DNA of 64,000 nt from Candidatus Cloacimonadaceae bacterium (GTDB lineage Bacteria > Cloacimonadota > Cloacimonadia > Cloacimonadales > Cloacimonadaceae). Of this stretch, positions 3,443 through 49,077 are shown piece by piece (the stretch's first letter is position 1; every line of letters begins with the position of its first letter). Where the stretch lies: positions 46,248 to 110,247 of the forward strand of contig JAXDBS010000095.1 in assembly GCA_034678545.1 (NCBI GenBank). Reading direction: 5' to 3'. Under the pieces are notes generated by a model. That model saw only the letters and a list, made by a program, of their open reading frames with translations, was not told where the DNA came from and did no database searches. Both the position numbers and the translations under genes were made by a program.

Positions 3443-6400
3443 TCAGGGTCGGGATGCCTGATCCGATCGCCTGCCTTTTCCTGATCTCTCTTCAAAGTAG
3501 GAATAAACAACCGGTATCAGAACCAGCGTGATCAGGGTTGAACTGAGCAATCCTCCGACCACAGCCCGGGCCAGGGGGGCCTGCGCTTCGCCGCCTTCGC
3601 CCAGGCCGATGGCCATGGGGAGCAGTCCCAGCATCGTTGTGCTGGCTGTCATCAGGACAGGGCGCAAGCGCCGCCTGCCCGCCTCTTCAATGGCAGCATG
3701 CACATTCATGCCGTCCCGCCGGCGCAGCAGATTCATGGTATCAACCAGCAGAATCGCGTTGTTGACCACAATTCCAGCCAGCATAATGATCCCTATATAG
3801 GATTGGATATTGAAAGTGGTCCCGGTCAGGAACAGGATCAGGACAACTCCGATGATGGCGAAGGGAACGGAGAACATGACGACAAAGGGATCCCGCAGGG
3901 ATTCATACTGGCTGGCCATGACCATATAGACCAGGATCAGGGCCAGCACAAAGCCCAGGAGCAGTTCCCGGAAGGACTTCTGCTGTTCCTCGTAATCTCC
4001 GCCAAAGACCACGGCAAAATCCTCGGGAATGGCCACTCCCCTGAGTTTGGTCCTGACCTCGCTGATGACGGATCCCATGTCCCGGCCGCCGATATTGGCA
4101 TTGATGGAAGAAATTCTCTCCTGGTCCTGGCGTTCGATTTCGACCGCTCCCAAGCCGGATTTCAGGGTGACAGCGTTGCGTAGCACTACCGGTTGCCCCT
4201 GCTGATTGGTGATGGTAAGATTCAGGACCTCTTCCAGGCTTTGTTTATCCTCGTCCTCAACCTGCATCAGAATTGTGAATTCCTTGCCGCCCTCGCGGTA
4301 AACTCCCGCGTTGGAACCTGACAGCACTATCTGCAGCATGCGGGCGATCTGCTGCACGCTCAGACCCAGCTCCGCGGCTTTTTCCCTGTCCACAACGACC
4401 AGTTCCTCAGGCGTTCCGGTGGAACGGCTGATGTTGCTGTCAGTTACGCCTTCCACGGAATCAACGATCTTTTTGATCTGGCGGGCCAGCCGGGAGGCTT
4501 TCTCCAGGTCGTGGCCCCGGATGATTATCTCCAGCCGTCCGGCAGAGCCTTGCAGAGCGCGGAATGCCATCATGGTCGAGACGGCGAAGACGCGGACCTT
4601 GGTCCCCGGCAGGCTGCCCAGTAGTTTTCTCAATTGGTTGCCGACCTCTTCGCTGGAACGCTTTCTCTCTGCCAGGGGGACCAGCGAAATCCTCATGGAA
4701 CCGGTGTGCGACAAGGCGGCGCCCCAGCCTCCGCCCCCTGTGGAACTCACCATGTTTTTGATTTCGGGAACAGCCTTGGCGGCGATCGCTTCGATTTCCT
4801 TCATCCGGGCATCAGTGATCTCCAGTTTGGTCCCTGTTTCCAGTTCGACGTTGACGCGGATCTCGCCCTCGTCGGTCTCCGGCATCAGCTCAGACCCCAC
4901 CAGCGGGATCAGCAGCAGGCTCAGGCCCAGCGCCGCTATTGCCGATACGGCTGTGATCATCCTGTGCCTGAGCGCCAGGTGCAGCAGCTGTTTATAATTG
5001 TTTTCCAGGTTGGTGAAGAATCTGCCTGTGGCATGAAATATCCTGTCTCTGATACTCTCCCGGGAGGTGGAATCGGAATTGTTAACGGTCAGCAGTTTGC
5101 TGGCCAGGACCGGAACGATGGTCAGGGCCGTTATCATGGAACAGAAAATGGAAAATGCCACCACATAGGATAGCTGTTTAAACATGACTCCGGACATGCC
5201 CCGCATGAAGATCAGAGGCAGGAAAACCACGATAGTCGTGATCGTGGCCGCAATGATCGGGGCCGTCACTTCCCTGGAGCCTTCGATGGCAGCCTGTTTC
5301 CGGACCAAGCCCTGCTCCCGCAGGCGATAGATGTTTTCCAGCACCACGATCGAATTGTCCAGCAGCATGCCCACGCCCAGCGCCAGGCCTCCCAGGGTCA
5401 TGATATTGAGAGTGAAACCGCTGAAGTACAGCAGGCCGAAAGTCGCTATGATGGAGATGGGGATTGCCGTGGAGATGATCGCCGTGCTTCTGACGTTGCG
5501 CAGGAAGATCAGCAGGACGATGATGGCCAGCAGGCCTCCGAACACAGCTGCCAGGCCCACATTGCGGATGGAGCGGCGGATATAAACGGAGCTGTCGTTG
5601 ATGGTGACAAGTTTTACCTGCCGGATGTCGGCATTGATCCTTTCCACCTCGGCCAGGGCGGCTTTGGCGACTGCCACCGTATTGGTTCCTGATTGCTTGT
5701 TGATCGAGATCTGGATCCCCGGCACTCCGTTGACTCTTGTGTGGCGGGTGATCCTGGTCCAGGCGTCATCCACTTGCGCAAGCTGGCTCAACGTTATGAC
5801 GCTGCCGCCCCGCTCTAAAACCACGCAGTTTTCCAGTTCTTCAAGACTGTTGAATTCGCCGGGGGTGCGGATCACGATTTCTTTGTTGCCGGATATGACC
5901 GATCCGGCCGGCAGGTTGATGTTGGCGGCTTTGATCGCGGAGATTATCTGGTCCAGCGGCACTTTCAGGGCCTTGATCTTATCCGGGTCCAGATTGATAT
6001 GAATTTCGCGTTCCAGACCTCCCCGGACGCTGATGGCCGCCACCCCCGGGACACGCTCCAGCCTGTATTGGATCTGGTTGTCGATCAGTTGCCTGAGCTG
6101 CAGCGGGGGCAGATTGCTGGTAACACCCAGCATCAGGATGGGCGTGGCCGATAGGTCAAACTTGAACAGGACCGGTCGGGAGGTTTCATCCGGCAAAGCT
6201 GAGATCACCCTGTCCAGCCTGTCTCGCACGTCGTTGGAGGCCGTGTCCAGGTTGGTGCCCCAGTTGAAGGAGATGCGCACGCTGCTGTTGCCTTCGCTGC
6301 TTTCTGATTCGATCGATTCGACTCCCGGCACGGCTGCCAGGGACTGCTCGATCGGACGGGTCACCAGTTCCTCCATTTCCTCCGGACTGGCGTTGCCGTA

Positions 6401-6550
6401 GCTGGTCGAGACGCTCAGGGATGGGAAGGTGACGTCCGGCATCAGGTCTATGGGAAGGCGCAGGAAGGCTATCCCCCCCAGTATGATTACGATCAAAGTC
6501 AGCATGATCGTGAAGACGGGGCGATTGACTGCCAGTTCGGAAAGGCTCAT
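3443..6550 (-). CDS. RND efflux transporter permease (AcrB/HAE-type), 1035 aa
   Basis: Length and 12-TM architecture with two large periplasmic loops. N-terminus MSLSELAVNRPVFTIMLTLIVIILGGIAFLRLPIDLMPDVTFP is typical of AcrB-family pumps. 4-nt overlap with the adaptor gene. Confidence 0.9.
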   Translation of the reverse strand: MSLSELAVNRPVFTIMLTLIVIILGGIAFLRLPIDLMPDVTFPSLSVSTSYGNASPEEMEELVTRPIEQSLAAVPGVESIESESSEGNSSVRISFNWGTNLDTASNDVRDRLDRVISALPDETSRPVLFKFDLSATPILMLGVTSNLPPLQLRQLIDNQIQYRLERVPGVAAISVRGGLEREIHINLDPDKIKALKVPLDQIISAIKAANINLPAGSVISGNKEIVIRTPGEFNSLEELENCVVLERGGSVITLSQLAQVDDAWTRITRHTRVNGVPGIQISINKQSGTNTVAVAKAALAEVERINADIRQVKLVTINDSSVYIRRSIRNVGLAAVFGGLLAIIVLLIFLRNVRSTAIISTAIPISIIATFGLLYFSGFTLNIMTLGGLALGVGMLLDNSIVVLENIYRLREQGLVRKQAAIEGSREVTAPIIAATITTIVVFLPLIFMRGMSGVMFKQLSYVVAFSIFCSMITALTIVPVLASKLLTVNNSDSTSRESIRDRIFHATGRFFTNLENNYKQLLHLALRHRMITAVSAIAALGLSLLLIPLVGSELMPETDEGEIRVNVELETGTKLEITDARMKEIEAIAAKAVPEIKNMVSSTGGGGWGAALSHTGSMRISLVPLAERKRSSEEVGNQLRKLLGSLPGTKVRVFAVSTMMAFRALQGSAGRLEIIIRGHDLEKASRLARQIKKIVDSVEGVTDSNISRSTGTPEELVVVDREKAAELGLSVQQIARMLQIVLSGSNAGVYREGGKEFTILMQVEDEDKQSLEEVLNLTITNQQGQPVVLRNAVTLKSGLGAVEIERQDQERISSINANIGGRDMGSVISEVRTKLRGVAIPEDFAVVFGGDYEEQQKSFRELLLGFVLALILVYMVMASQYESLRDPFVVMFSVPFAIIGVVLILFLTGTTFNIQSYIGIIMLAGIVVNNAILLVDTMNLLRRRDGMNVHAAIEEAGRRRLRPVLMTASTTMLGLLPMAIGLGEGGEAQAPLARAVVGGLLSSTLITLVLIPVVYSYFEERSGKGRRSDQASRP

Positions 6551-7752
6551 GGCCTGGCCCCGCGTTTGTCCGGCTTGCCTGGATTGTTATTGTTCTGCGC
6601 CAGGCTGATGCTGCCTCCGTCCTGCAGCTGTTCCTGACCCAGGATGACAATCTCTCCAGACAGTTCAGGTTCCACCACTTCGGCGTTTTGCGCGTCCCGG
6701 ATGCCGGTTTTCAACGGAACGAACCTGGCGGTCAGTTTTTCTTTGTCAGCCAAAAAAACTCCCTGTTGGCCGTCGCGCTCGACCAAAGCCGCCAAGGGGA
6801 CCACAGGCACGTCCTTGTGTTCGGAATATATGATCGAGACCCGGACGAACATGCCCGGCTTGAGCAGGCCATCAGGATTGGGAATTTCAATTTCGGCCCG
6901 GGCCTGTCTGGACGACTCCTGCAATACGGGCGCCAGCCTGGCCAGCCGGCCCGGAAAAATCTTATCCGGATAGGCGTCAGTTGTTATGTCCACCGCCTGG
7001 TCGGCGCGGATACGGACATAATCCTTTTCTATGACGTCGATCTCTGCGGTTACGGAGCTGTTGTCAACCAGGGTCAGGATTGGGGTGTTGGCTGTCAAAA
7101 TGTCTCCCTCGTCGGCGAAGATCTCTCCCACCAGGCGGGTCTTGCCGCCGCCGGACCAGGAGGCTTTTATTTTTGTATACGAATATTGGATCTCGGCTTT
7201 GGTCAGGGCGGCCTGGGCTTTCCTTACTTCTGCCAGGGCAATTTCGTGTTTGGCCCGGGTTGCGGCATAATCGGCATCAGCTTTATCCATTGCCCCCTGG
7301 GATTCGTAGTTTTGTTCAAACAACCGTTTTACGGTCTGCCAGGCGCCTTCCTCAGCTTTCATCGCCAGGCGCAACTGCTCCACCTGGGCCTGGGCAACTG
7401 CCAGAGCTGCGCGGTTTTGTTCCAACTCCTGCTGGTAAAGGGAAGCGTCCATTTCTGCGATGACCTGGCCATTGCTTACTCTGTCGCCCAGATGTACCAG
7501 CAGCCTTTCCAGCCTGCCGGACAACTGGGGCGCCACAGTGTAGGTGGCATTGGATTTAAGTGAGCCGCCAAATCTTCCAACATCCTGCATGGCCGCCAGG
7601 CGCACCGGCGCAGTCTCGACTGGAACGGTGAATCTGTCTCTGGGCTTTCCGCCGGGTCCGGCTTCCGCCTTTTTATCTGATACCGTCTGTATTATCCGCC
7701 AGCCGATCAGGGCCACCAGTACAATCACAACGATCCACAGTACCTTTTTCAT
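6547..7752 (-). CDS. RND efflux periplasmic adaptor (HlyD/MFP family)
   Basis: N-terminal TM anchor, coiled-coil hairpin region (LEQNRAALAVAQAQVEQLRLAMKAEE...) and beta-barrel region. Translationally coupled to the RND permease. Confidence 0.85.
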   Translation of the reverse strand: MKKVLWIVVIVLVALIGWRIIQTVSDKKAEAGPGGKPRDRFTVPVETAPVRLAAMQDVGRFGGSLKSNATYTVAPQLSGRLERLLVHLGDRVSNGQVIAEMDASLYQQELEQNRAALAVAQAQVEQLRLAMKAEEGAWQTVKRLFEQNYESQGAMDKADADYAATRAKHEIALAEVRKAQAALTKAEIQYSYTKIKASWSGGGKTRLVGEIFADEGDILTANTPILTLVDNSSVTAEIDVIEKDYVRIRADQAVDITTDAYPDKIFPGRLARLAPVLQESSRQARAEIEIPNPDGLLKPGMFVRVSIIYSEHKDVPVVPLAALVERDGQQGVFLADKEKLTARFVPLKTGIRDAQNAEVVEPELSGEIVILGQEQLQDGGSISLAQNNNNPGKPDKRGARP

Positions 7753-8105: not shown

Positions 8106-9641
8106 TCACTGGATACCCAGCGCCTTTAACCTCGCCCGGAACGTATGCGGCTGCAGTTTGAGCAGGCGGGCGGCACGGGAGGCGTTGCCGCGGGCTTTGC
8201 TGAGCGCGGCGCGGTAGTAGAGGGGCAGGATCTCCTTTTCCAGGTCGATCCCGTCGTCCGGGATGGAGATGGAAACTTCAGGTCCGTCGGTGACGCTTTT
8301 GCATTCTATGTCCTCTGGCCGGATGGTATCGTTCTTGCAGTTGATGCAGGCGATCTGGATGATGTTGCGCAGTTCGCGCACGTTGCCCTTCCAGGTATGG
8401 GCCAGCAGGATCTTTTCCGCGGGCGGGGAGAGCTTTTTCTGCGTCTGGTGCTGGTGGTTGAAGAGCCGGATGAAGTGCCCGGCCAGCAGCAGGATGTCCG
8501 TGCCGCGAGTGCGCAGGGGCGGCAGGCCGATCTCATAATTGACGATGCGGTAAAACAAGTCTTCCCGGAATTTGCCTTCGTACACCAGGTCACGCAGGTT
8601 TCTGTTGCTGGCGGTCAGCAGCCTCACGTTGACCTTGGCGACGCGCCCGCCCACAGGAGTGATCTCGCCGCTTTCCAGCACCCGCAGCAGCTTCACCTGC
8701 ATGCTCAGGGGCAGGTCCGCCACCTCGTCCAGGAAGAGGGTGCCGGTGTCCGCGTCCTTGAAATAGCCGGGATGGTCGGCAATAGCGCCCGTGAAGGAAC
8801 CTTTTCTATGGCCGAAGAATTCGCTTTCGAACAGGTTTTCGCTGATGGAGCCGCAGTTCACCGGGATGAAGGGTTTCATTTTCCGGATGCTCTGCCGGTG
8901 GATGAGCCGGGCCACGACCTCTTTGCCGGTGCCGCTTTCCCCGCTGATGTGGACGGGCAGGTCATACCTGGAGATGGTGTTGATCATGTTCTTGACGCTC
9001 TGGATGGAGTCGCAGTTGCCGATAAAATTCTCAAACTCATGCTCGACCATCTGCTTCAGCATCACGTTTTCCCGGCTCAGGCGGGTGGCCTCCACCACTA
9101 TGTAATCAATGGCCTCTTCTTTTTCCACCCCGGTTTTTTTGCGGGTGTCGCGCGGGCTTTCCAGAGAGTAACAGACACGCTCCATCTGGGGAAAGTCATT
9201 GAGGCGGAAGGAGATCGGCGTGACGCCCTGCTCCCGGGAACTTTGGATCAGTTCCGCTTGGATGATCCCGCCCTGCTTGAGCAGCACCCAGCAGGAATGC
9301 ATGGTGGGCGTGCCCGAGGTGACAGACACGGTGAACTGCGTTGTTTTGGGATTTTCCTTTTTCAGGATGTTGGTCACGGCATTGTACATGGCGGGATAGA
9401 CCAGGTTGTAATCGATGGGGTCCAGCGTCACTGCCGGTTCAAAGAACACCTGCAGGGCGGGGAACTTCGCCTTGCACCAGTCACGGATCTCGTAAGCGTG
9501 CTCCAGGTAGGCTTCCTTGTTGAACAGGATGTAGAGCGCGTCAAAGGGCCGCTCCCTCAGGATGCTGACAATGGCGCCCTCCTTCCCTTCGCTCAGGTAG
9601 CAGTCATTGTTCCCGATAAAACTCAACAATGCTTTCTTCAT
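8106..9641 (-). CDS. Sigma-54-dependent transcriptional activator with an RtcR-like N-terminal CARF domain
   Basis: AAA+ bEBP core: GESGTGKEVVARLIH (Walker A), GSFTGA (GAFTGA loop), TLFLDEV (Walker B). C-terminal Fis-type HTH: GNASRAARLLKLQPHTFRARLKALGI. The N-terminal ~155 aa (LLSFIGNNDCY...VSVTSGTPTMHSCWVLLKQGGIIQAELIQSS) parallels the E. coli RtcR CARF domain (FGFVGTVLDY...IHITTGTHVAQICWFLLAEARYLPARLIQSS, from memory). Start moved to ATG 9641 (GGGAGA 7 nt upstream); the track start at 9656 is a TTG. Confidence 0.85.
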   Translation of the reverse strand: MKKALLSFIGNNDCYLSEGKEGAIVSILRERPFDALYILFNKEAYLEHAYEIRDWCKAKFPALQVFFEPAVTLDPIDYNLVYPAMYNAVTNILKKENPKTTQFTVSVTSGTPTMHSCWVLLKQGGIIQAELIQSSREQGVTPISFRLNDFPQMERVCYSLESPRDTRKKTGVEKEEAIDYIVVEATRLSRENVMLKQMVEHEFENFIGNCDSIQSVKNMINTISRYDLPVHISGESGTGKEVVARLIHRQSIRKMKPFIPVNCGSISENLFESEFFGHRKGSFTGAIADHPGYFKDADTGTLFLDEVADLPLSMQVKLLRVLESGEITPVGGRVAKVNVRLLTASNRNLRDLVYEGKFREDLFYRIVNYEIGLPPLRTRGTDILLLAGHFIRLFNHQHQTQKKLSPPAEKILLAHTWKGNVRELRNIIQIACINCKNDTIRPEDIECKSVTDGPEVSISIPDDGIDLEKEILPLYYRAALSKARGNASRAARLLKLQPHTFRARLKALGIQ

Positions 9642-9896
9642 ATATCTTTCTCCCAATTCAGATTGTCAGTCTGCATAGAGATGCATTCTGGTGTCAAGCG
9701 CGATTTTTCGCTTGATAGAAAAATGCTCCGAATAACATGGCTCGGTCCGATGATTCCGAGGTTTGATCATTCCCCTGCCGGAGGGGAGCCAATCCTGGAT
9801 TTGCCAAAACTGTGTAATTATTAAGGTAACTCCATCTATATCAATGTGTTCTGCTATGCAATATCCCCAGCCTCAACTTTTCATTTCCCCCTTTGG

Positions 9897-9980
9897 CCCT
9901 TGCTTGCACTACGGACCCATTACGGACCCAATACGGACTTTATCCGTATTGGGTCCGTAATGCTAACAGGGGCGGAGCGG
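9897..9980. repeat. Palindromic intergenic repeat, copy 1 of 3 (~85 bp)
   Basis: cccttgcttgcacTACGGACCCATTACGGACCCAATACGGActttaTCCGTATTGGGTCCGTAAtgctaacaggggcggagcgg. Perfect hairpin arms at 9920-9937 and 9943-9960 (stem extendable to 9918-9962), loop CTTTA. The left arm is made of 11-nt direct repeats TACGGACCCAW. Near-identical copies are at 34381-34465 and 48994-49077. Confidence 0.9.
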
Positions 9981-10251
9981 ATAACACACTGGATTAGTAG
10001 AAATTTGCGGCGGCCAAGCTGCAGGAATATGCTTGACAGGATGAGCCCGGCCGGCTCAATATAAATCTGCTGGATAGCCGGGAACAGCGTGTGAACTGAT
10101 TTCAGCGGTCTTGACAGACGCATAGGATTATGCGTTAAACGGATAGCGGGACGGCCTGAACCGGATTTGGCGTGCTCGAGCGGCCGGGGGGGCAGTCCTG
10201 GTGTCAGCTTGGACATAATGTTTTGAAGTTAATCTTGATTTGGGAGCAAGC

Positions 10252-10461
10252 ATGGGAAAGAAAAAACTGTTTTTATGGCTGGCCCCGGGCGCCGGAGCCC
10301 TGGCAGGCAATCTAGTCCGGCACGAGGCCTTTGAATTCACCAGGCCGGAGGGGGGAGACCGACTCTGTACTCGAACGGTGACGAATTCTGAACAGCGGAT
10401 CAGTATATTATATAATCATACAGAACCATCCCTGAAATTATTGAAAGTGATAAAGAAGTAG
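10252..10461 (+). CDS. Possible small ORF (69 aa) just upstream of the giant protease gene
   Basis: ATG 10252 has GGGAG 5 nt upstream (10242-10246). Hydrophobic N-terminus MGKKKLFLWLAPGAGALAGNLV. It stops 12 nt before the giant gene ATG. No family recognised, so it may be non-coding leader. Confidence 0.3.
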   Translation: MGKKKLFLWLAPGAGALAGNLVRHEAFEFTRPEGGDRLCTRTVTNSEQRISILYNHTEPSLKLLKVIKK

Positions 10462-10473
10462 AAGGAGTTTTAT

Positions 10474-13400
10474 ATGCTTAAAAGCAAGCAGTGTTTAATC
10501 ATTCTGATGGTGTTATTTCTGTTTACCGGCCTGTCAGCCCTGCCGGTTGAACTAAGCCCGGCCCAAGTCAGAGAGGTCGCCGATAAATATGCCAGACAGC
10601 TTTGGGGCAGCCAGCTTAATCCCGCAGAGCCGATTCCCTATTACAGTCCGGATGAGAAAATCATCGCCTGGCACTTCAACTATGCCATCGGCGGAACCTT
10701 CCCGGACAGGGCAACTCTGCAGCAGAGAAGCGACGCTGCTTTCAAAGCAGGCAACCGCGACCTGGGCTGGGGCAATGAAGAATTCGGCAACATGGTGGTG
10801 GGTGCCAACCGCAATATGCCTGTCTTCGTGGAATATTCCAAATGCCTGTCCAAACAATACGCTCTGGGCACCAAGATAGAGGAACTGGCAGCCAAAGCCT
10901 TTCCGGAAGGATATAAGTTTGGCAAGACCTATTACCTCGGACCTGTGAGTGTCTGGTTTGCCGTCAGTAATGGCAGGGAAACCAAATACATCAATCCGGA
11001 ACCCAAAGCCCGGACCTATTCCGAAACTCAGTTCAGGGAGTATGTTGAATCCATGCGCCTGTTCTGGACCCGGGACAACTTTGAAGATGACTGGTCCCGC
11101 ATCCTGGATGATGGACAAATCCTGAGGCTGGATAGATCTGCCTTTATTCTTTACAGAGAAAAGATGCCATACTACGAATGGCATGAAGGCTGCACTCCCT
11201 CTTCAGCGTCCATGCTGCTTGCCTGGTGGGATAACCGCTATGACAATATCGGCAACCTGACCCGCTATACGATGTCCAAATACGACACAGTTCAGAACCA
11301 GACAGATCATCACGTGACAGATGCCTGCCTTTCACTGCACAATCACATGGATACAGATTCAGAAGGCAGCACCAGCAGAGAAGATATCTGCGACGGATAT
11401 ATTGCGACAGTTGAAAACAGGGGTTACAACTGCTCTTCGGATGGACATTGGGCTGCTTCCTGGGAACCCCGGGAGATCTTTAACGATATCAAAGGACAGA
11501 TAGATCAGGGTTTTCCGGTGCATGTCAGCATACCGAATCATTCTGTAATTGGAGTGGGTTATTCGGATGATCCGGATATGGTGACAGTGCATGATCCCAA
11601 CATGTCCACCGACCGTATCATCAATCGGGGTATACTGGAAGGCGCTTACTGGGTGCACATAGAAGCCAATCCCAACCATAACAAGGTTGATGTGCTCTCA
11701 CCGGACGGCGGTAAGGAATGGGGCACCAATAACGGCGGTGAAACCCTGTACTCCGGTGAAATGTATGAGATCAGATGGGACAGCACCTTCTTCCCTTATA
11801 CCTATGCCAAGATCTATTACCACGACGAAGGCGGATCCACAACAGACGGATGGACTCTCATTACAGCCAATACTCCCAACGACGGCAGTTATGACTGGCT
11901 GGTGCCCCCCATCGATTGTTTCTATGGAAACTCTACTGCATATGGCAGGATCAAGATCGAGATCTATAACTCCAATACCAGCCTGATGATAGCCAGCGAC
12001 GGCAGCCATGGCAATTTTACAATCATGCCCGGCGGCAGCCTGCCTGCCCTAAGCGGCATCCTGCAAAACGTTGACCGCACTCCGGACTTTTTCTCCGCCA
12101 ACCTCAATGAAACAGGATGCTGGTATGTGATCTCCATTATGGACAACATCCAGGAGGCATATAATCCTTGGGATATTGAATTATACAACAACACCGGTTT
12201 TTCCGGTCTCTTGGAAACAGCAACCGGAAGTGACATAGTAAACTATCTGGTGGTAAATAATTATCAGCAGTCGCCCTTTGAATACGGAGTTAAATTCATC
12301 AATCCGGCAGGGAATACAGCAGCTAAAGTGCATAAATCCGGGGATCCGGGCAATACTTTGACCACAGGCACCAATAACCTGACCTGGTATTCCACCCGGG
12401 CTGCGGAAATGTGGAACCTGTATCTGACTCCGGAAACCTATTACTTCGAAATGACAGGGGCGGATTCAACCGCCGATCTGGATATATCAGTCTATCAAAG
12501 CAACGGAGACGGATTCCAGACCTATCAGCAGGCTGTTGTTGCCTCCCACAACCTGGGAGCAGGTATCGCTGAATCCTTCCATTTTTCGCCCACAGCGAAT
12601 GGCTGGTATGGAGTATGTGTAAGCTCGAGAACCCTGGTGCAGACTGATTTTACGATCAATATCAGCACGGCTGGAAACTGGACCGGCGCGATCAGCACAG
12701 ATTGGCATACACCCGGCAACTGGTCAGGCAACGTCGTTCCCGACCTCAATGATAATGTGGTTATCCCCTCCGGCAGCAGCAACTATCCCCTTGTGAATGC
12801 CAATGCCTTTATCAAGTCTCTGACCCTAGAGACAGATGCCACCCTGCATATCGGTGCATCAGGATATCTCAGCGTGTACGGCAACCTGACTGTCTATGGA
12901 TTCGTATATCTGGATAATTCCACAAGCGTGCTGGACATAGCCGGTAATGTCAGTTGGGAAGCAGGCTCGCAACTGTTTACTGACAGCAACGCCAATATCT
13001 ATTGCTACGGCAACTGGACCTTCCAGAACGGCACCATCTTCCAGCCGGACGGCGGTATTGTGCATTTCCAGTCCAATCAGGACAGCTATATCGCCAATTA
13101 TGACAACAACTCCAGTTTCCATAACCTTGTTATCAACAAAATGGAAGGCAAGACTGTCTTCTATAGCCAGGGTTCCACCAATGACCTCAAGGTCAATGGA
13201 CAATTGACTCTGCAGGCCGGATATCTGGGCTCCACTTCCAGCCGCACGATAAGTTCATTAGGTCAGTTGGTCACAATCGGAGGAGGCTTCCGCCTGGACA
13301 ACGGGACTTTTAAGATAGGCGGAAACACTGCCACGCTGGTCTGCCAACCCAATACTTGGTTCAATCACCTGCAGATCAACAGCTCGCAGCAGATCCAGTT

Positions 13401-16400
13401 AGGCTCCGACCTGACCCTGAAAGGCAACATGAGTATCAGCAACGGCGGTATGGCTGCCGGAAGCTGGCATATCTATGCAGGCGGTGACTGGTTCAGTAAC
13501 AACTGGCCTTCACCTTTCAATCCGGGTACGGGAACTGTGACCTTCAACGGCGGTCAGCAAAGCTTGTGCGGCGGCGGCAACTTCAATATTTTGGAGATTA
13601 GCAACAATACAGAACTGCACTTCAACGTAAATACCTCAATCTGCAACAGCTATGTTTATACCAGCGGAGCGCTTTATGTGGACGGCGGATACCTGACTAT
13701 TCTGGATCTGGCAGCCAATGGACTTACTGGTAAGTTCTATGTGGAAGCAGGTAACCTCGATATCATCCAGGATTCCAATCAAAGGATTGATCTGATCGGA
13801 GAAATCCATATCAATGGCGGATATATGTTTGTCAGCGGCGGTTATGGTATGAGCACCTGGCCCTCTGGAGCCAACTCCGTGATCGAAATGAGCGACGGAT
13901 ACCTGGAATTCACCAATAGCGGCATCTCCCTTGAAGGCAACACAGGATACACCCTGACCAGCAACCTGACCGGCGGCACCATTGCCCTGGCAGGCAATCT
14001 GGCTTGCACCAGAACCGATTTTCAGCCCACCGGCGGCACCTTCAGGATCAAACGCGCCAATCAGGGCACCCAGTATATCTACTGCAACGCAGCCAGCCGG
14101 TTTGCCAATCTTGTAATAGACACTGCTCTTTCCAGAGATGAGACAGACAGACCTGCTGACCAGCGTCTGGAGATCATCACCCTGCAAACCGACATCAACC
14201 TCCTGAATGACCTGATTGTCCTCTCCGGCACCCTTGACCTTTCCGGTTTTACCATGAACGTAGGCAATGACGTCGAAGTATCCGGCAATCTGGTTATGGA
14301 CAGCACCTATGATCTGCTGATAGCAGGTTCTTCTTTCTATTGGCATCCGACTGCCACAGGCACCCTGACCACCGGCGAGATCAGAGTCGCCAATTCCCTC
14401 TATGTATTGGAAGGAGCAAACTTCCAAATGGGCACAGGCACCATCTTCAGCTTCTTCGGCAGTCTGAATGACGGTTATCTCTCCAACCACGGCACCAACA
14501 CCACCTTCGGCAACCTCTTAATAAACAAGACGGATTACGTGGTGGAAACCGACACCGACTGTACACCCATGACCGTGCTGGGCAACCTGACCATCAACAG
14601 CAATAACTACCTGACCCTGACTGCCTGCTCCCTCAGTGTCAACGGCATCCTCAACGCCTCCTCCGGCTCAAACCTGCAGCTTATGAACGGCTCCAACCTG
14701 ACTGTAACAGGCAACGCCACCTTCTATGGCGACCTGAGAGTGGAGACCGATGCCATCCTGACCTGCCATACCGGCTTTGAGCTCAACCAGCTTGGTTCTA
14801 TCCAGCTTCTGGGTGGCAGCATCGTTCTGGACAGAGCCTTTGACAGTTCCTATTACAACTTTGCCGGAGCTGTGTATTTCAGCGGCGGAACTCTCAATAT
14901 CCCCAACAACGGACTGCAGATCGCCTCCACCTGCGATTTTGACATGACCGGCGGCACTCTGAGGCTGGGTTGGGTCTTTCGTGCTCTCATCTCCGGAACC
15001 TTCCTCCCGAGCGGAGGAACGGTCGAATTCATCGGAGCCAATCCCGGCGGCATCATCATGTCAACGGGCAACAGCTTCTATGACCTGAAGATAGCCAAAT
15101 CCTCCTCCATAAACGTTGCTCTGGGCAGCAATACGAATGTCAGTAACGACCTCATCGTCCAGCGCGGCAGTCTCAACCTCTCCTATCAGGACCCTATTCT
15201 GCACACCTGGTCTGATTATGACCTGTCCGTCGGCAGAGACGTCATCATCAACGTAGGCACCCTGATCGCTGGACGCACCGCCAATCTCCTCAGCGTCGGC
15301 AGGAACTGGACCAACAACGGCGGACCGGCCTACTTTACGGAAGGCACCGGCACCGTCAGCTTTGTCTCCGACCAGTTGGCGACCCTGAGCACGGAATACT
15401 TCTACCATGTGAATGTGAACAAGACCTCCACCGAAGTCCATGACCTTTCCATAGATCCATCAGCCTCAGTCAGAGTCAGCGGCAACCTGAATATCGGCAG
15501 CACTTCCGGACTGAAGCTGACCTCTGGTTCCAGCCTGGACTGCAACGCAGGAGTGACCATCAATGGCAGCCTGGACCTCACCTCCACCCAAACCCCCAAC
15601 ACCCTCTATCTGGCTGGCAACCTGTTTGATGAACATGACACCGAGCTCGGTCTGCTCGCAAACAGCGGCTGCAGCATTGTCTTCGACGGCAGCACTGACC
15701 AGACCTTTGGCGGAGACTATATGACAGGTCTGGTCCTGCCGCTCTGCCACGTCAGCGTAAATAAATCCGGCGGCAAAGTCCTGCCCTATAATCCCATCGA
15801 TGTCATGGGAAACTTTACCATTACCAATGGTGAATGGAGCTACATTGACGCAGGTTATACCAAGAACTTCCACGGCAACCTGATCATTGAAACAGGCGGA
15901 GCTTATACCGACAGCACCGGCACTGTTAACCTTTCCGGCTCTGCCGATACCGGTCTGAAGCTGCTCGGAATAGCCAAGTTCGGTTCTTTCATTGTGAATA
16001 AAACTGCCGTCTCCAACGTCAACCTGACCGGCAACGCCATTTTCAGCGGTACGACAGCCATCCAGCTTACTGCCGGCATCCTCAGTGTCAATGCCAATAC
16101 CCTGAAATACAAAGGCACCTTTGTGATCAACACAGACGGCAGACTCAATCTCGGACCCGGTTCCATCTTCAATCTGAATGACAATTCCACCTTCTCTCTC
16201 AACGGCGGAGCCGAATTCTACAGCCTGGGAGAAGCTGCCAATCCTGCCCTGCTGACCAGCGATACCGGATATTATACCTTCTCAACCTCCGCTACTGTAG
16301 TAACGACTATTGGTGCCCGTTACACCATCTTTGAAAAGATGGGAACAGCCGGGATCAACCTCTCTTCACGTTGTGCTTTGGCAGAAGGCAATCGCTTTTA

Positions 16401-16866
16401 CCACTGCACCTTCAGGGACGGCACAGTCGGAGGGACGCTGCTGACCATCAACAGCAACGCCATTTACACCATTATCGGAGCTGATTTCCCGTCTCAGGGA
16501 AGCAGTGCCAGTAACGTCACCCGCTCCAACACCGGTTCTATGTATCTAATCACCTTCAGCAGTTGGACAGGCGATTTCGGCGGGGAAGACCATGATGCCG
16601 GAGCAGGAGACAGCAGGATTGCCTGGGTGCAGCCGGTTCAGCCCGATCCTCCGCTCAATCTGCAGATCACTAAAAGTGGCGGCGTTGCAGTCCTCACCTG
16701 GAATCCGGTTACCGGAGCCACAGGCTACAATATCTACCGCTGCTTCGCTTACGAAGACCTGGACGAAGCCCAACTGGCTGGAACCACCACCGGCACGACC
16801 TGGACCGATACGCAGATGCTCAGTAATCCGTCGGCACTTTACTACCTAAGGTCATATTCGGAATAA
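10474..16866 (+). CDS. Giant secreted protein (2130 aa): signal peptide, papain-fold (C10/C39-like) cysteine peptidase, long beta-helix repeat region, C-terminal Fn3
   Basis: Signal peptide MLKSKQCLIILMVLFLFTGLSALP. Candidate catalytic Cys in YYEWHEGCTPSSASMLLAWWD (Cys240, nt ~11191) and His in PNHSVIGVGYSDDPDMVTVHDPN (His356, nt ~11539). About 1500 aa of degenerate GNLT/GxL...L repeats typical of right-handed beta-helix adhesins. C-terminal Fn3-like PPLNLQITKSGGVAVLTWNPVTGATGYNIYRC. RBS GAAGGAG upstream. Confidence 0.85.
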   Translation: MLKSKQCLIILMVLFLFTGLSALPVELSPAQVREVADKYARQLWGSQLNPAEPIPYYSPDEKIIAWHFNYAIGGTFPDRATLQQRSDAAFKAGNRDLGWGNEEFGNMVVGANRNMPVFVEYSKCLSKQYALGTKIEELAAKAFPEGYKFGKTYYLGPVSVWFAVSNGRETKYINPEPKARTYSETQFREYVESMRLFWTRDNFEDDWSRILDDGQILRLDRSAFILYREKMPYYEWHEGCTPSSASMLLAWWDNRYDNIGNLTRYTMSKYDTVQNQTDHHVTDACLSLHNHMDTDSEGSTSREDICDGYIATVENRGYNCSSDGHWAASWEPREIFNDIKGQIDQGFPVHVSIPNHSVIGVGYSDDPDMVTVHDPNMSTDRIINRGILEGAYWVHIEANPNHNKVDVLSPDGGKEWGTNNGGETLYSGEMYEIRWDSTFFPYTYAKIYYHDEGGSTTDGWTLITANTPNDGSYDWLVPPIDCFYGNSTAYGRIKIEIYNSNTSLMIASDGSHGNFTIMPGGSLPALSGILQNVDRTPDFFSANLNETGCWYVISIMDNIQEAYNPWDIELYNNTGFSGLLETATGSDIVNYLVVNNYQQSPFEYGVKFINPAGNTAAKVHKSGDPGNTLTTGTNNLTWYSTRAAEMWNLYLTPETYYFEMTGADSTADLDISVYQSNGDGFQTYQQAVVASHNLGAGIAESFHFSPTANGWYGVCVSSRTLVQTDFTINISTAGNWTGAISTDWHTPGNWSGNVVPDLNDNVVIPSGSSNYPLVNANAFIKSLTLETDATLHIGASGYLSVYGNLTVYGFVYLDNSTSVLDIAGNVSWEAGSQLFTDSNANIYCYGNWTFQNGTIFQPDGGIVHFQSNQDSYIANYDNNSSFHNLVINKMEGKTVFYSQGSTNDLKVNGQLTLQAGYLGSTSSRTISSLGQLVTIGGGFRLDNGTFKIGGNTATLVCQPNTWFNHLQINSSQQIQLGSDLTLKGNMSISNGGMAAGSWHIYAGGDWFSNNWPSPFNPGTGTVTFNGGQQSLCGGGNFNILEISNNTELHFNVNTSICNSYVYTSGALYVDGGYLTILDLAANGLTGKFYVEAGNLDIIQDSNQRIDLIGEIHINGGYMFVSGGYGMSTWPSGANSVIEMSDGYLEFTNSGISLEGNTGYTLTSNLTGGTIALAGNLACTRTDFQPTGGTFRIKRANQGTQYIYCNAASRFANLVIDTALSRDETDRPADQRLEIITLQTDINLLNDLIVLSGTLDLSGFTMNVGNDVEVSGNLVMDSTYDLLIAGSSFYWHPTATGTLTTGEIRVANSLYVLEGANFQMGTGTIFSFFGSLNDGYLSNHGTNTTFGNLLINKTDYVVETDTDCTPMTVLGNLTINSNNYLTLTACSLSVNGILNASSGSNLQLMNGSNLTVTGNATFYGDLRVETDAILTCHTGFELNQLGSIQLLGGSIVLDRAFDSSYYNFAGAVYFSGGTLNIPNNGLQIASTCDFDMTGGTLRLGWVFRALISGTFLPSGGTVEFIGANPGGIIMSTGNSFYDLKIAKSSSINVALGSNTNVSNDLIVQRGSLNLSYQDPILHTWSDYDLSVGRDVIINVGTLIAGRTANLLSVGRNWTNNGGPAYFTEGTGTVSFVSDQLATLSTEYFYHVNVNKTSTEVHDLSIDPSASVRVSGNLNIGSTSGLKLTSGSSLDCNAGVTINGSLDLTSTQTPNTLYLAGNLFDEHDTELGLLANSGCSIVFDGSTDQTFGGDYMTGLVLPLCHVSVNKSGGKVLPYNPIDVMGNFTITNGEWSYIDAGYTKNFHGNLIIETGGAYTDSTGTVNLSGSADTGLKLLGIAKFGSFIVNKTAVSNVNLTGNAIFSGTTAIQLTAGILSVNANTLKYKGTFVINTDGRLNLGPGSIFNLNDNSTFSLNGGAEFYSLGEAANPALLTSDTGYYTFSTSATVVTTIGARYTIFEKMGTAGINLSSRCALAEGNRFYHCTFRDGTVGGTLLTINSNAIYTIIGADFPSQGSSASNVTRSNTGSMYLITFSSWTGDFGGEDHDAGAGDSRIAWVQPVQPDPPLNLQITKSGGVAVLTWNPVTGATGYNIYRCFAYEDLDEAQLAGTTTGTTWTDTQMLSNPSALYYLRSYSE

Positions 16867-34237: not shown

Positions 34238-34311
34238 CCTCTGAACAAACGCCAGTCTACGCCAGAAAACCTTATCCTGCGCAGGCTGGAAGCCGGTTTA
34301 TAAACTAATCA

Positions 34312-34337
34312 AGCCCGTCTCACGACGGGCTTTTTTT
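34312..34337 (+). terminator. Rho-independent terminator after rpsG
   Basis: agcccgtc-tcac-gacgggct followed by ttttttt. Confidence 0.85.
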
Positions 34338-34380: not shown

Positions 34381-34465
34381 CCCTGCTTGCACTACGGGCC
34401 CAATACGGACCCAATACGGACTTTGTCCGTATTGGGTCCGTAATGCTATTAAGGGCGAAGCAGGG
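34381..34465. repeat. Palindromic intergenic repeat, copy 2 of 3
   Basis: ccctgcttgcacTACGGGCCCAATACGGACCCAATACGGACtttGTCCGTATTGGGTCCGTAatgctattaagggcgaagcaggg. Hairpin at 34404-34442. The outer ends CCCTGCTT / AAGCAGGG are also complementary. Confidence 0.9.
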
Positions 34466-34551: not shown

Positions 34552-34580
34552 TTGACAGATATGTAAATATTTGTATAAAT
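34552..34580 (+). promoter_or_regulatory. Sigma-70-type promoter for the 34619 gene
   Basis: TTGACA (34552-57), 16 nt, then TATAAA(T) (34574-80), with TG at 34572-73 as an extended -10. It ends about 39 nt before ATG 34619. Confidence 0.6.
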
Positions 34581-34618: not shown

Positions 34619-35245
34619 ATGGACAACAAATTCACCGATTTTCTGGCGCCCTATCTGGCTTTCATCGACAAGGGGGAGATCTTCAGAAAGCCTTTCGGCT
34701 GGATGTATGTGATCATCGCCTTTCTTAATCTTCTCTTGCCGTTGTATATCCTGATCAAGGCCATCGACATCGGCATCTTTGAAGCTCCGGCCGCTATCGT
34801 GTTCGCGATGATCCTGTTCTGGATCGTGCTTGCCGCAGCAGGCTGGTTCAGTTTTCAGATCTGGTGGAACCGGGCCAGGCAGGTGGTCAATGCGGACGAT
34901 CAGGATGACAAGTTCGTGGCCATTCCCGTAGTTTCCCATTTTATTCAAACGGTGGGAGAGTGGTTTGGGACCTGGTTTGGCTTTGTAGGTTTGTTTATCA
35001 CGCTGATCTCAATGATCCTGCTCAAGGGAGGCAGTTTTGTATACTCCCTGGGATTGCCCCTGCCTTCTTACGGGTGGCTGGGGATTGTCCTGTTTCCCAT
35101 TATCGGTTTGCTGATCATCCTGTTCACGCGCTTCATATCGGAATCTTGGAATGCGATAGCGGCCATCGCCAACAATACTGCCCACCACAAGCCGTCCGAG
35201 CCGGAAAAGAATCCTGCTCAGGAACCGGTTACACTGGAGGAGTGA
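34619..35245 (+). CDS. Hypothetical multi-pass membrane protein (208 aa)
   Basis: Four or five hydrophobic helices (e.g. WMYVIIAFLNLLLPLYILI, AAIVFAMILFWIVLAAAGWF, WFGFVGLFITLISMILL, LGIVLFPIIGLLIILF). RBS AAAGGAG upstream. No family recognised. Confidence 0.65.
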   Translation: MDNKFTDFLAPYLAFIDKGEIFRKPFGWMYVIIAFLNLLLPLYILIKAIDIGIFEAPAAIVFAMILFWIVLAAAGWFSFQIWWNRARQVVNADDQDDKFVAIPVVSHFIQTVGEWFGTWFGFVGLFITLISMILLKGGSFVYSLGLPLPSYGWLGIVLFPIIGLLIILFTRFISESWNAIAAIANNTAHHKPSEPEKNPAQEPVTLEE

Positions 35246-35426
35246 TTCTTAATCCGAGAAGAATGTTTGCTTCAAGCTTTTTGGCATAGACTCTGACACC
35301 CTTGATGCGGGCGTCTGGAATAGCTTCCTGGAAAGCGGATGTTTTCCATTGACGAACCGGCAGGTTCCAAAAAATGGCACAAGTTGATTTTGCTTAATTG
35401 CATAAAAGAGATCAGAGGAGAATAGA

Positions 35427-35603
35427 ATGGCAAAGAATCACCGCGGCAAAGGCATCCGGAATCTGCCCAATCACGGCAGGGGTGAATGCCCCGGCTGCCA
35501 CCGGACCGGCGTCAAGATCACGCACGAGATCAAGGCCGGAGAAAAGACCGTTAAGGTCTGCAAGATCTGCAGCAAGGCAGATCCTGCCAAATTAGCGCTG
35601 TAA
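35427..35603 (+). CDS. Small zinc-ribbon protein (58 aa; below the ORF-track cut-off)
   Basis: Hand translation: MAKNHRGKGIRNLPNHGRGECPGCHRTGVKITHEIKAGEKTVKVCKICSKADPAKLAL. Two CxxC pairs. GAGGAG RBS ~6 nt upstream of the ATG (AGAGGAG at 35414-35420). Preferred over the Arg-rich overlapping track ORF 35398-35595. Confidence 0.5.
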   Translation: MAKNHRGKGIRNLPNHGRGECPGCHRTGVKITHEIKAGEKTVKVCKICSKADPAKLAL

Positions 35604-35625
35604 GCGATTAGTTACAGAATCAAAA

Positions 35626-35657
35626 CTCCGGGCCGGGGGCTGATACCGGGCCCGGAG
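35626..35657 (+). terminator. GC-rich hairpin after the small zinc-ribbon ORF (non-canonical terminator or processing site)
   Basis: ctccgggcc...ggcccggag, a 9-bp GC-rich stem plus 2 inner pairs. No U-tract follows, and rsmA starts at 35684. Confidence 0.3.
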
Positions 35658-35683
35658 TCCTCATTAAAAGCAACTCTGAGGAT

Positions 35684-36514
35684 ATGTTGCCCCCCCTGCA
35701 CCCAATCCGGCAGTTTGGCCAGCACTTTTTAACAGATACCGGGACAGCCGACCAGATCATTGAAGCATCCGAAATCCAGGCCGGAGAACCGGTGTGGGAG
35801 ATCGGCCCCGGCAAAGGCATCCTGACCGGTAGAATCCTGAAATTCACCAATGATCTGACGGCCTTTGAGATAGACACCCGTCTCAGCAACTTTCTGCAAC
35901 AGCAGTTCGGGCGCGCGGTGCAAATTCTCAACCGGGATGTTCTGGCCTGCGACTGGGAAGCCATGCTGGCAGCCAAGGAGGCTGCTTCCGGCCGAAAAGT
36001 CAAGCTGGTTTCCAACCTGCCTTACCAGATCACTTCGCCTGTCCTGTACGCTTTGGAAGAAAACGCGCGGTGGTTCAGCCGAGCAGTGCTCATGCTGCAG
36101 AAGGAGGTGGCGGAACGGCTGGCGGCCAGAGCGGGCTGCAAGGCCTACGGGGTGCTGACTCTGAGGATCAGGTATTACTTTGATCTGAAACTCCTGTTCA
36201 ACGTACCACCAGAGTCCTTTGACCCGATCCCGAAGGTAAGTTCATCCGTTGTCGTGCTGACGCCACGGTCAGATCCTCCCGCGCTTAAATCCCTTGACAC
36301 ATACAGAATGATCATTAAAAAAGCTTTTATCCACAGACGCAAGACCTTAAAGAATAATCTGCGCTGCCTGTACTCCGAAAAACAGCTTGAGAGGCTGGAA
36401 CGGGAAAGCGGAATAGATTTCCGGCGCAGGGGAGAAACGATTGAAGAAGGCGAGTTTGCTCATCTGGCTGATTGCGCTTATGAGCTGCCCGGTCCTCAGC
36501 CAGACCGGAGTTAA
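35684..36514 (+). CDS. rsmA: 16S rRNA (adenine1518/1519-N6)-dimethyltransferase
   Basis: RQFGQHFLTD start motif, SAM-binding VWEIGPGKGILT, and VSNLPYQITSP. Confidence 0.93.
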   Translation: MLPPLHPIRQFGQHFLTDTGTADQIIEASEIQAGEPVWEIGPGKGILTGRILKFTNDLTAFEIDTRLSNFLQQQFGRAVQILNRDVLACDWEAMLAAKEAASGRKVKLVSNLPYQITSPVLYALEENARWFSRAVLMLQKEVAERLAARAGCKAYGVLTLRIRYYFDLKLLFNVPPESFDPIPKVSSSVVVLTPRSDPPALKSLDTYRMIIKKAFIHRRKTLKNNLRCLYSEKQLERLERESGIDFRRRGETIEEGEFAHLADCAYELPGPQPDRS

Positions 36515-47440: not shown

Positions 47441-48277
47441 TTATTTCTTCTTTTTGACGGCTGACGCCAGCCCTTTTCTGATCTCGTCCCGCAGCTTCTT
47501 GGCTTCCTTGGCGGCGGTTTCGGCGAAGGAAGCGGAGTTGTCCTGAAAGATGATCCCGCGCGAGGAATTGACCAGCACATTGGGTTCCCTGCCTGATCTG
47601 ATAGCGTTCAACAGCACGGCCTTCAGGTCCCCGCCCTGGGCTCCGATGCCCGGGATCAGGAAGATCTGGTCCGGCAATAAACTGCGCAGTTCGGCCAGAT
47701 GCTCCGGATGCGTTGCGCCCGCCACAGCGCCGAGTTGCTTGGGATTGTACTTGGCTATCCAGTTCGCGATGTCCCTAAACAGTTCCTTCTTGATCAAAAA
47801 TTCCGAGGCGGACGGGTTGGAGGTCAGCGCCAGGGCAAAGGCGAAGTTCTTTTCGTCATTGAGCAGGGCGCGGACCGTGTCCTTTCCCATCAGCGGGTTG
47901 AGCGTAATGGCGTCGCAGCCCAACTCGTCGAAATAAGCTGCCAGATAAGCTTCCATCGTGTTCCCGATATCCCCGGCCTTGCAGTCCAGGATGATCGGGA
48001 TGTCCTGCGGAACGGCGTTGATGGTCAGCTTGAGAGCTTCCAGCCCCCGGTAGCCCGCGGCCAGGTAAAAAGCCAGATTCGCCTTGTAGGCGCAGGCCAG
48101 GGTCGCGGTTGATTCGATGATCGCCCGGTTGAAGGTGTAGATCGGGTTCTTATCCCCGCGCAGGCAGCGGGGCAGCCTCTTCAGTTCGGGATCCAAACCT
48201 ACGCAGAGGAACGATTCCTTGCTGCGCCAGGCTTTCTGATACTTAGTCCAAAAGGATTTTGACCGAATCCTCGCCAT
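47441..48277 (-). CDS. pyrF: Orotidine 5'-phosphate decarboxylase (type 2)
   Basis: LCVGLDPE and [12 protein letters not shown] motifs. 278 aa. Confidence 0.88.
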
Positions 48278-48779
48278 CTGTTTCCTCGAATGCTACTTTG
48301 ATTATTTCGTTTTTGGAGGTGGGCACGTTTTTGCCCACGTAGTCAGCCTTGATGGGCAACTCCCGGTGTCCGCGGTCCACCAGCACTGCCAGCTGGATCT
48401 GTTTGGGCCGCCCGAAGTCCAGTAGGGCGTCTATGGCGGCGCGCACCGTCCTGCCGGTAAACAGTACGTCGTCCGTTAATACTATGATAGCATCGTCCAT
48501 CTCGAAATCGATCGAACTGCCCTTGATCACAGGCTGATGCGAAATCGTGCTCAGGTCGTCCCGGTAAAGCGTGATGTCGATTATCCCGACCGGGATATCC
48601 ACATTTTCAATCATCTTCAGATAACTGGCGATCCTTTCCGCCAGCGGCACGCCCCGGCTGCGGATGCCCACCAGCCGGATCTTCTCCAGGCCCTTGTTCT
48701 GCTCAATTATCTCGTGCGCCATGCGCCGGACGGTCCGTTCCATGTGGGCCTTATCCATGATGATGCTTTTGACCGGCAT
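48243..48779 (-). CDS. pyrR: Bifunctional pyrimidine operon regulator / uracil phosphoribosyltransferase PyrR
   Basis: Aligns by eye along its whole length with B. subtilis PyrR ([14 protein letters not shown]..., [47 protein letters not shown]). Start moved to ATG 48779 (GGGAGG at 48786-48791). Confidence 0.9.
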
Positions 48780-48817
48780 CAAAGCCTCCCTCAGCAGTCC
48801 TTTTTTATAATAATCAA

Positions 48818-48846
48818 GTATATTTAAAAGATTGCCTGACGTCAAG
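48818..48846 (-). promoter_or_regulatory. Sigma-70-type promoter of pyrR-pyrF
   Basis: The minus strand reads TTGACG (48846-48841), 17 nt, TATACT (48823-48818). This implies a leader of only ~30 nt and supports the ATG 48779 start. Confidence 0.6.
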
Positions 48847-48993: not shown

Positions 48994-49077
48994 CCCTGCT
49001 TGCATTACTTACCCATTACGGACCCATTACGGACTTTATCCGTAATGGGTCCGTAATGCCAGCAGGGGCGAAGGCGG
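48994..49077. repeat. Palindromic intergenic repeat, copy 3 of 3
   Basis: ccctgcttgcatTACTTACCCATTACGGACCCATTACGGActttaTCCGTAATGGGTCCGTAAtgccagcaggggcgaaggcgg. Arms at 49016-49033 and 49039-49056 (stem extendable to 49014-49058). Carries a paired A>T / T>A change relative to copies 1 and 2. Confidence 0.9.

Follow-up and report, generated by a model that had tools for sequence, protein, structure and literature searches.

TACGG elements, a family of palindromic repeats of about 85-95 bases that occurs almost only in Cloacimonadota and is apparently undescribed, were best explained as REP/REPIN-like, lineage-restricted and vertically inherited non-autonomous DNA repeats that are copied or homogenised within genomes. 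We put the probability of this reading at roughly one half. The elements were assigned to the vertically inherited REP/REPIN type because the copies were randomly oriented, occupied all intergenic contexts, were absent from phages and plasmids and were restricted to one phylum. Since the defining features of RAYT-associated REPs (RAYT, REP-associated Y1 tyrosine transposase) and, in the loci covered, those of IS-derived MITEs were not found, they would form a distinct variant among interspersed palindromes. No account of repeats in Cloacimonadota was found in the literature searched. The window, which is the whole stretch of 64,000 nucleotides that was analysed, contained three copies. The copies and their neighbours were located as follows.

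9897-9980, plus strand: copy 1, identified by sequence, motif statistics, fold and family HMM; outer stem 9897-9909, units 9910-9920, 9921-9931 and 9932-9938, loop approximately 9939-9943, inverted units 9942-9959, ATGC and outer stem 9960-9980.
34381-34465, plus strand: copy 2, identified by sequence, fold and family HMM; units 34393-34403, 34404-34414 and 34415-34421, loop TTT, inverted units 34425-34442, outer stem CCCTGCTT...AAGCAGGG.
48994-49077, plus strand: copy 3, identified by sequence, fold and family HMM; first unit degenerate (TACTTACCCAT, 49006-49016), further units 49017-49027 and 49028-49034, inverted units 49038-49055.
8106-9656, minus strand: gene for an RtcR-like sigma-54 activator, left neighbour of copy 1.
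34311-34332: canonical intrinsic terminator of rpsG; copy 2 starts 49 nt downstream.
48243-48845, minus strand: PRTase (pyrE-like) gene, divergent left neighbour of copy 3.
49194-49628, plus strand: 4HBT thioesterase gene, right neighbour of copy 3.

The initial annotation had described three repeats in a common orientation, each with a left arm of 2.6 units, a TTT loop and a right arm of 1.6 inverted units. Their placement was re-read from the sequence and was exact, and the layout was as described. The unit was the 11-nt TACGGACCCAW in all three copies. The left arm consisted of a pyrimidine-rich outer stem, CCCTGCTTGCA, and the direct units. The loop comprised TTT with its flanking bases. 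After its inverted units, the right arm continued with ATGC and a purine-rich outer stem. When up to 3 mismatches were allowed, the 18-nt two-unit motif TACGGACCCAWTACGGAC was matched at 9 places in the window, none of them outside the three elements. The expected number in shuffled windows was 0.02, and none of 100 shuffles attained 9. The TACGG element was the sole true dispersed repeat of the window. The claim of a perfect hairpin was also borne out. The predicted fold showed a perfect inner helix of 17-18 bp and an outer helix, with the extra unit of the left arm forming an 11-nt bulge, and folding was equally good on either strand. The RNA folds reached -50 to -56 kcal/mol (z -6.1 to -8.2 versus shuffles), and the DNA folds reached -27 to -33 kcal/mol (z -6.4 to -8.2). 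For copy 1, the z values were -7.2 (RNA) and -6.4 (DNA), with a family HMM E value of 3.6e-16. Copy 2 gave an RNA fold of -56.3 kcal/mol with z -8.2 and an HMM E value of 1.3e-15. For copy 3, z was -6.1 (RNA) and -7.9 (DNA), and the HMM E value was 1e-13.

The surroundings of the copies had been described correctly, with copies 1 and 3 between divergent genes and copy 2 past a genuine terminator. This terminator closed the tuf-nusG-rplK-rplA-rplL-rpoB-rpoC-rpsL-rpsG block. No fusA was present after rpsG (window 34619-38255), and copy 2 was followed by two ORFs without a Pfam match, of 208 and 604 aa, with one for an RrnaAD-type rRNA adenine dimethylase between them. The rightward genes beside copy 1 were a small ORF of 69 aa with a strong RBS (10252-10461) and then a 2130-aa protein with a Peptidase_C39_2 domain (window 10252-16866 for the two). 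This Peptidase_C39_2 block was missing between rtcR and the ARPP-1/YgjP-like genes in the species of L002-L005, and copy 1 was located at its rtcR-side border. The RtcR-family activator had weak CARF-like N-terminal matches. Its gene adjoined an RND efflux pair (3443-7752, minus strand), not rtcBA, and this arrangement was kept in L002-L008. The TTGAC(A) hexamers noted to the right of the copies were present, at slightly corrected positions (10033-10038, 34552-34557 and 49135-49140, the last being TTGACC) and at distances of 54-87 nt. A simple sigma-70 scan called none of the three as a full promoter. A sigma-54 promoter within the outer stem (TGGC-N7-TAGCA) was considered and rejected, the spacing being one base short by inspection.

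The distribution of the family was determined using a generalised pattern, TACGG-N4-AW-TACGG, a 3-12-nt gap and CCGTA-WT-N4-CCGTA. The pattern is strict and may miss diverged subfamilies, and all copy numbers are lower bounds. The label 'three-copy' was right for the 64-kb window but not beyond it, as at least 115 stretches matched in references with one genome per species. About 112 of these listed stretches were from Cloacimonadota, in about 16 MAGs. One Cloacimonadota MAG carried at least 25-26 copies, and one complete 4.38-Mb chromosome carried at least 10. Three matches were listed outside the phylum, which by a rough estimate is about the number expected by chance. They were single palindromes in Psychrobacillus (L082:6719-6777), a Parcubacteria MAG (L100:1574-1626) and Lepagella (L108:1041-1094), and were probably chance matches or unrelated operator-like sites. 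The palindrome in L100 ran on into further ATTGCC repeats. At least 120 metagenome stretches also matched the pattern. There were zero matches in 2.9 million viral contigs, and a BLAST search with copy 1 gave no plasmid or phage match.

The exact window-type core pattern gave 0 matches in the genome and metagenome collections. This indicated that the species of the window was not in them, and only the Logan contig L001 matched. L001, from the same species as the window, ended within copy 1, and L006 was another short-read contig that ended inside an element. Such breaks were counted in favour of the REP-like reading. The closest RtcR-like homologues of the window protein were 74-81% identical and came from Cloacimonadota, which assigned the window to this phylum. 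In L006, L007 and L008, where RtcR was 76-81% identical, related elements with other unit sequences were located upstream of rtcR. A family HMM found 244 copies in 236 sources (1.7 Mb of loci and the window), of which one was missed by the strict pattern. No decayed relics, isolated arms or half-elements were found in the 1.7 Mb of element-containing loci. About 8 second copies beyond the ascertained one occurred in the 1.7 Mb, which indicated tens of copies per genome, not hundreds. The window was denser than other loci, with 3 copies in 64 kb.

A typical member of the family was a near-perfect palindrome of 85-95 nt with a G+C-rich outer stem (e.g. GGCTCCC-GTTAGC), a 3-5-nt asymmetric loop and 2-4 tandem 11-nt units per arm. 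Most members had 3+3 units in their arms, whereas the three copies of the window all had 3+2 and some lineages had 4+2. The 11-nt period of the initial annotation was kept in every lineage and was a phylum-wide structural feature. Within the unit, the heptamer A-W-T-A-C-G-G was invariant or nearly so, and the invariant motif was WTACGG. The next four nucleotides were lineage-specific (GACC in the window; AGTC/AATC, GATC/GATA, TACC/TAGC or ACTC elsewhere), and this quartet co-varied between the arms. Some terminal units read GTAGTGC/GCACTAC. The DNA folds of other members reached z = -15. When 33 copies from 17 genomes were aligned, 82% of cells paired, compared with 71.5% for shuffled and 30-44% for slid partners, and variable columns co-varied (e.g. 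AU 13, GC 9, UA 9). The W position was mispaired in up to 10 of the 33 copies. Arm covariation does not distinguish a hairpin from symmetric protein binding, as both arms carry the same units in inverted form. The outer stem was far more variable than the core within a genome, and this uniformity of the core is an argument against the REP-like reading. Compensatory change in the outer stem of individual copies was largely rejected on inspection of two MAGs. In MAG JAJBBF, the variable outer-stem hexamers of the two arms were often non-complementary, and in MAG CAZVXK the covariation was weak. No 'empty' outer stems that could be pre-existing targets were found.

The REP-like reading was based mainly on how the copies were related and placed. 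Identity over the 65-nt core was 0.97 within genomes and 0.76 between them, and it reached 0.993 among the 26 copies of one MAG. This near-identity, together with the lineage-specific quartets, requires copying or homogenising at the DNA level. Only a copying process could change the quartet at tens of loci at once. The two loop orientations were about equally frequent (ATGAAAT 20 versus ATTTCAT 17; AGTTAAT 13 versus ATTAACT 12). Relative to the flanking genes, 22 copies had the same orientation and 22 the opposite one. Local GC skew gave no signal of a replication-strand bias (p = 0.69), although this was a weak test. All copies were intergenic, and the 80 classifiable copies were divided into 47 tandem, 20 divergent and 13 convergent contexts by crude longest-ORF calls.

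From this population pattern of copies, we infer a DNA-level process that spreads the family or keeps it uniform inside each genome. Either non-autonomous transposition or gene conversion would bring this about, probably through a single-stranded hairpin or a cruciform as intermediate. The process would be driven by a dedicated factor that acts in trans and recognises the repeated units, and whose gene probably does not adjoin the copies. Copies would persist only in intergenic DNA where neither a promoter nor an mRNA is disrupted, typically just upstream of a -35 hexamer. The element ends would then serve as preferred insertion sites for IS3-like IS and RAYT-type REPs.

A different reading is that the elements form a dispersed binding-site array for a host protein, such as a nucleoid-associated protein, an insulator-like protein or a global regulator. 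It was the main alternative, but we regarded it as doubtful. It proposes that the AWTACGG heptamer is recognised once per helical turn, with three sites per inverted arm, and that the elements are functional chromosomal sites upstream of promoters, not selfish DNA. The strict 11-nt period and the division into an invariant 7-mer and a variable 4-mer, kept phylum-wide, were consistent with this proposal, and a hairpin does not need similarity among the direct units of one arm. The presence of intact copies only was also in its favour. A purely selfish element would not usually leave such a relic-free record, which more closely resembles that of selected sites or of constant homogenisation. However, an identical quartet in all copies of a genome needs copying, not selection alone, and no candidate protein is known.

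The placement relative to promoters was relevant to the same proposal. Outward TTGACA was found in 38 flank-bins within 160 nt, compared with 2 for inward TTGACA, and peaked 10-30 nt past the outer stem, where about 2.6 were expected per 40-nt bin. Four or five of the outward hexamers belonged to IS3-like IS ends. The copies were usually upstream of promoters, not between promoter and gene. The link with TTGACA was real family-wide, but it may merely reflect where insertions are tolerated. Placement upstream of promoters is expected whether the copies are tolerated insertions or upstream binding arrays. An orientation-independent function would match the observed orientations. However, some copies separated convergent genes or occupied narrow gaps inside operons, and the hexamers of the window were at variable distances and were not called as promoters.

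Intergenic regions were re-used across species, and this was a further point for binding by a host protein. About 18 locus pairs from different genomes had an element beside orthologous genes at similar distances, and a rough calculation gave about 8 pairs at random. The excess was modest. It was counted against the REP-like reading, as the same intergenic regions were occupied roughly twice as often as expected by this crude measure, but positional conservation was downgraded as proof of function. The pair L077/L113 aligned through the element, and the other pairs shared the intergenic region only. The region upstream of rtcR was occupied in four species (the window, L006, L007 and L008) and unoccupied in the species of L002-L005. 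This difference in occupancy was counted in favour of the REP-like reading, and the re-use in four species in favour of binding by a host protein. In L002, whose species is without the rtcR-upstream element, inverted TGTCCCAC/GTGGGACA motifs were clustered over 150 nt at 4509-4660. Positions were mostly unshared between genomes, which counts against binding by a host protein.

Searches by tblastn with E. coli RayT and local homologues found five RAYT-like genes among 235 element-centred loci. The matches to E. coli RayT had E values down to 7e-10, and the three genes that were run against Pfam Y1_Tnp gave E values of 2e-9 to 4e-6. The RAYT-like (Y1_Tnp) loci were as follows.

L012:1800-3210, RAYT-like locus.
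L032:1720-2930, RAYT-like locus.
L118:1-1700, RAYT-like locus; the TACGG element directly abuts the REP array around the gene.
L221:1-1540, RAYT-like locus; the TACGG element directly abuts the REP array around the gene.
L210:80-1000, RAYT-like locus.

All five genes were bracketed by arrays of different, classical short REPs (for example CGTAGCATAGCATGCC, GTAGCGCCTACTTCAGGAGG, GGCAGACGTCCCCGTCTGCC and CTACAGACG..CGTCTGTAG), and the TACGG element was outside these arrays. The loci appear to be canonical REP-RAYT loci in Cloacimonadota. The RAYT-like genes had 29-46% mutual identity, and their REPs were lineage-specific. In L118, a (TAAGTTAA)n tandem run (1818-1860) directly followed the element. 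We considered it unlikely that the TACGG elements are an ordinary REP/REPIN family, cut and pasted by the RAYT of these genomes. Three of the five genes were within 750 nt of an element, two elements abutted a RAYT-flanking array, and RAYT was the sole mobile-DNA protein family that recurred near elements. The GTAGTGC/GCACTAC terminal units and the lack of a visible target-site duplication, as Y1 transposition would predict, were consistent with such an origin. However, the RAYT genes were flanked by classical short REPs and never by TACGG elements. The GTAG tag was present only in some terminal units and was not conserved in the family, the size of 85-95 nt with internal tandem units was unlike the 20-40 nt of a REP, and no RAYT was found in the 64-kb window, which also had no IS. 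The initial annotation had held that hundreds of randomly placed copies together with a RAYT would reduce the element to an ordinary REP family. Many copies and RAYT genes were indeed present, but these RAYTs were flanked by other REPs, and the family was therefore not simply an ordinary RAYT-REP family.

Other mobile DNA was found at the ends of the palindromes. In one MAG, the GTAG-REP GTAGGGGCGGACGCCGATCCGCCCC occurred 4 times in 148.7 kb of loci and abutted a TACGG element in all four cases, in a BIME-like mosaic.

L014:2147-2175, GTAG-REP.
L037:160-190, GTAG-REP.
L048:6575-6605, GTAG-REP.
L091:3735-3765, GTAG-REP, which takes the place of the outer stem.

In addition, an IS3-like IS or its approximately 60-nt left-end remnant abutted the palindrome end in 9 loci of several genomes, always with the OrfA-proximal (left) end toward the palindrome. 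The sites included the following.

L097:5880-6286, IS3-like IS.
L013:1-140, IS3-like IS.
L226:1275-1700, IS3-like IS.
L189:11240-11362, IS3-like IS.
L159:1-130, IS3-like IS.
L064:1-105, IS3-like IS.
L060:393-470, IS3-like IS remnant.
L026:4313-4390, IS3-like IS remnant.

The left end of this IS was TGTCTCGTCCTAAAAGAGTTGACA, and the IS ends (TGTCTCGTCCTAAAA...) were unrelated to the TACGG element. Its OrfA matched Pfam HTH_Tnp_1 with an E value of 1e-4, just under the gathering score. A 'conserved promoter' beside elements in several species was rejected, as it consisted of the IS3-like left end or its remnants and not of an orthologous gene. E. coli PUs are insertion hot spots for IS1397, and the arrangement suggests, by analogy, that the IS3-like IS has a similar target specificity. 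The IS and the REPs abutting the palindromes indicated that the element ends are insertion hot spots for other mobile DNA.

Neighbouring ORFs were clustered (668, then 1388), and no recurrent transposase or other mobilising gene was found among them. The clusters contained housekeeping orthologues, T9SS-sorted cargo paralogues, which were the largest, and a few RAYTs. T9SS cargo proteins were rejected as linked genes, as they belong to a paralogue-rich family and their position relative to the element was inconsistent. Proteins of the '23S rRNA-intervening sequence' or bAvd-like type occurred in element-bearing loci (L020:557-964, L086:5151-5531 and L086:7135-7491) and may be accessory genes of diversity-generating retroelements. 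The lack of a recurrently linked mobilising gene and the association of the RAYTs with other REPs are arguments against the REP-like reading.

The assignment to known classes had been left open between a REP/BIME-like element, a MITE, a binding array and a small structured RNA. A REP/BIME-like element fitted closest, with many extragenic palindromic copies in both orientations and in every type of intergenic region, a species-specific sequence (at least 25-26 copies in one MAG) and ends that attract an IS3-like IS and classical REPs. A MITE would have a parent IS with matching ends, and the 1.7 Mb of loci with elements contained no arm-flanked transposase. When 11-20 copies per genome were aligned, no direct repeat that could be a target-site duplication was visible at the borders. 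The ends faded out into a degenerate pyrimidine/purine palindrome, and no empty site was seen that would fix them. The lack of a definable target-site duplication or empty site was also counted against the REP-like reading. Plasmid or phage iterons did not fit, as the window was chromosomal (tuf-nusG-rplKAJL-rpoBC-rpsLG) and there were no plasmid, phage or viral matches. Integron attC or Xer sites, considered from GTTAGC/GCTAAC, were rejected, because the consensus did not fit and the copies were dispersed, not in cassette arrays. The earlier rejections of an IS, a tRNA, a CRISPR and a terminator all stood. The units abutted without spacers and the arms were inverted, which does not fit a CRISPR. 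No copy was followed by a T-run, and only 13 of the 80 classifiable copies were between convergent genes, which does not fit a terminator.

An RNA-level role, in which the long hairpin would serve as a small RNA, stabilise mRNA, provide an RNase III site or terminate transcription without a U-tract, was highly improbable. The predicted hairpins were very stable, the 11 bp per turn is also the helical repeat of the A-form, many copies between co-directional genes would be co-transcribed, and E. coli REP elements stabilise upstream mRNA. However, there was no strand bias relative to the flanking genes (22 versus 22), which disfavoured a discrete strand-specific RNA. Many copies, including copies 1 and 3 of the window, were between divergent genes and upstream of outward -35-like hexamers, where a transcript is unexpected. 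The stem had no U-tract, though the organism uses canonical terminators, and the W position was mispaired in up to 10 of 33 copies. No Rfam family (Rfam 15) reached the gathering score for the element. In the window only tRNAs reached the threshold, and three family members gave only sub-threshold matches to eukaryotic miRNA precursors.

A further proposal can be put forward tentatively. The TACGG palindromes would be a phylum-old class of hairpin-plus-iteron elements, neither RAYT-REP nor IS-derived MITE, in which a dedicated protein reads one 11-bp unit per turn and co-evolves with the quartet. If this is true, the dedicated protein would be either a new mobilising or gene-converting enzyme, or a domesticated factor that organises or insulates the chromosome and places the elements upstream of promoters. 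Cloacimonadota are abundant, uncultured syntrophs of anaerobic digesters. Their TACGG repeats break short-read assemblies and mark hot spots for IS and REP insertion, and the lineage-specific quartet is a sequence tag that could aid binning or strain typing. The elements are a second, structurally different palindromic class beside the classical RAYT-REP systems in the same genomes. This raised the question of whether they are moved by the same Y1 enzymes or by something new, or are kept as a protein-binding array.

We compared the TACGG elements with known systems. The REP/PU/BIME elements of Enterobacteria and Pseudomonas, and REPINs, are also multi-copy palindromes that are strictly extragenic, form hairpins and are found in either orientation. 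Like the TACGG elements, they are species-specific and uniform within a genome, show no visible target-site duplications, form repeat mosaics and are targets of IS3-family elements. However, the TACGG elements are near-perfect palindromes of 85-95 nt, compared with 20-40 nt for a REP, and are built from tandem 11-nt units. They have no conserved GTAG or CGTC tag, and the REPs belonging to the RAYT genes are different. Bacterial MITEs (Correia, ERIC/IRU, RUP, Nezha) are likewise small, non-coding and intergenic with inverted-repeat ends, occur in tens of copies and are able to adjoin promoters. In contrast to MITEs, the whole TACGG element is one palindrome and not two terminal inverted repeats around a core, and no target-site duplication, parent IS or isolated arm was found in 1.7 Mb of loci. 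A third comparison is with iteron or centromere-like arrays. The parC site of plasmid R1 is bound by ParR, and pho-box type repeats have a 7+4 structure. These arrays share with the TACGG elements the 11-bp period, the conserved 7-mer and the looser 4-mer, which would put the sites on one helix face. By analogy, an 11-bp period with 7+4 units is the pattern that would be expected for cooperative protein binding. However, a parC-type array occupies one locus and belongs to a cognate gene on the same replicon, whereas the TACGG elements are tens of dispersed palindromes with no linked gene.
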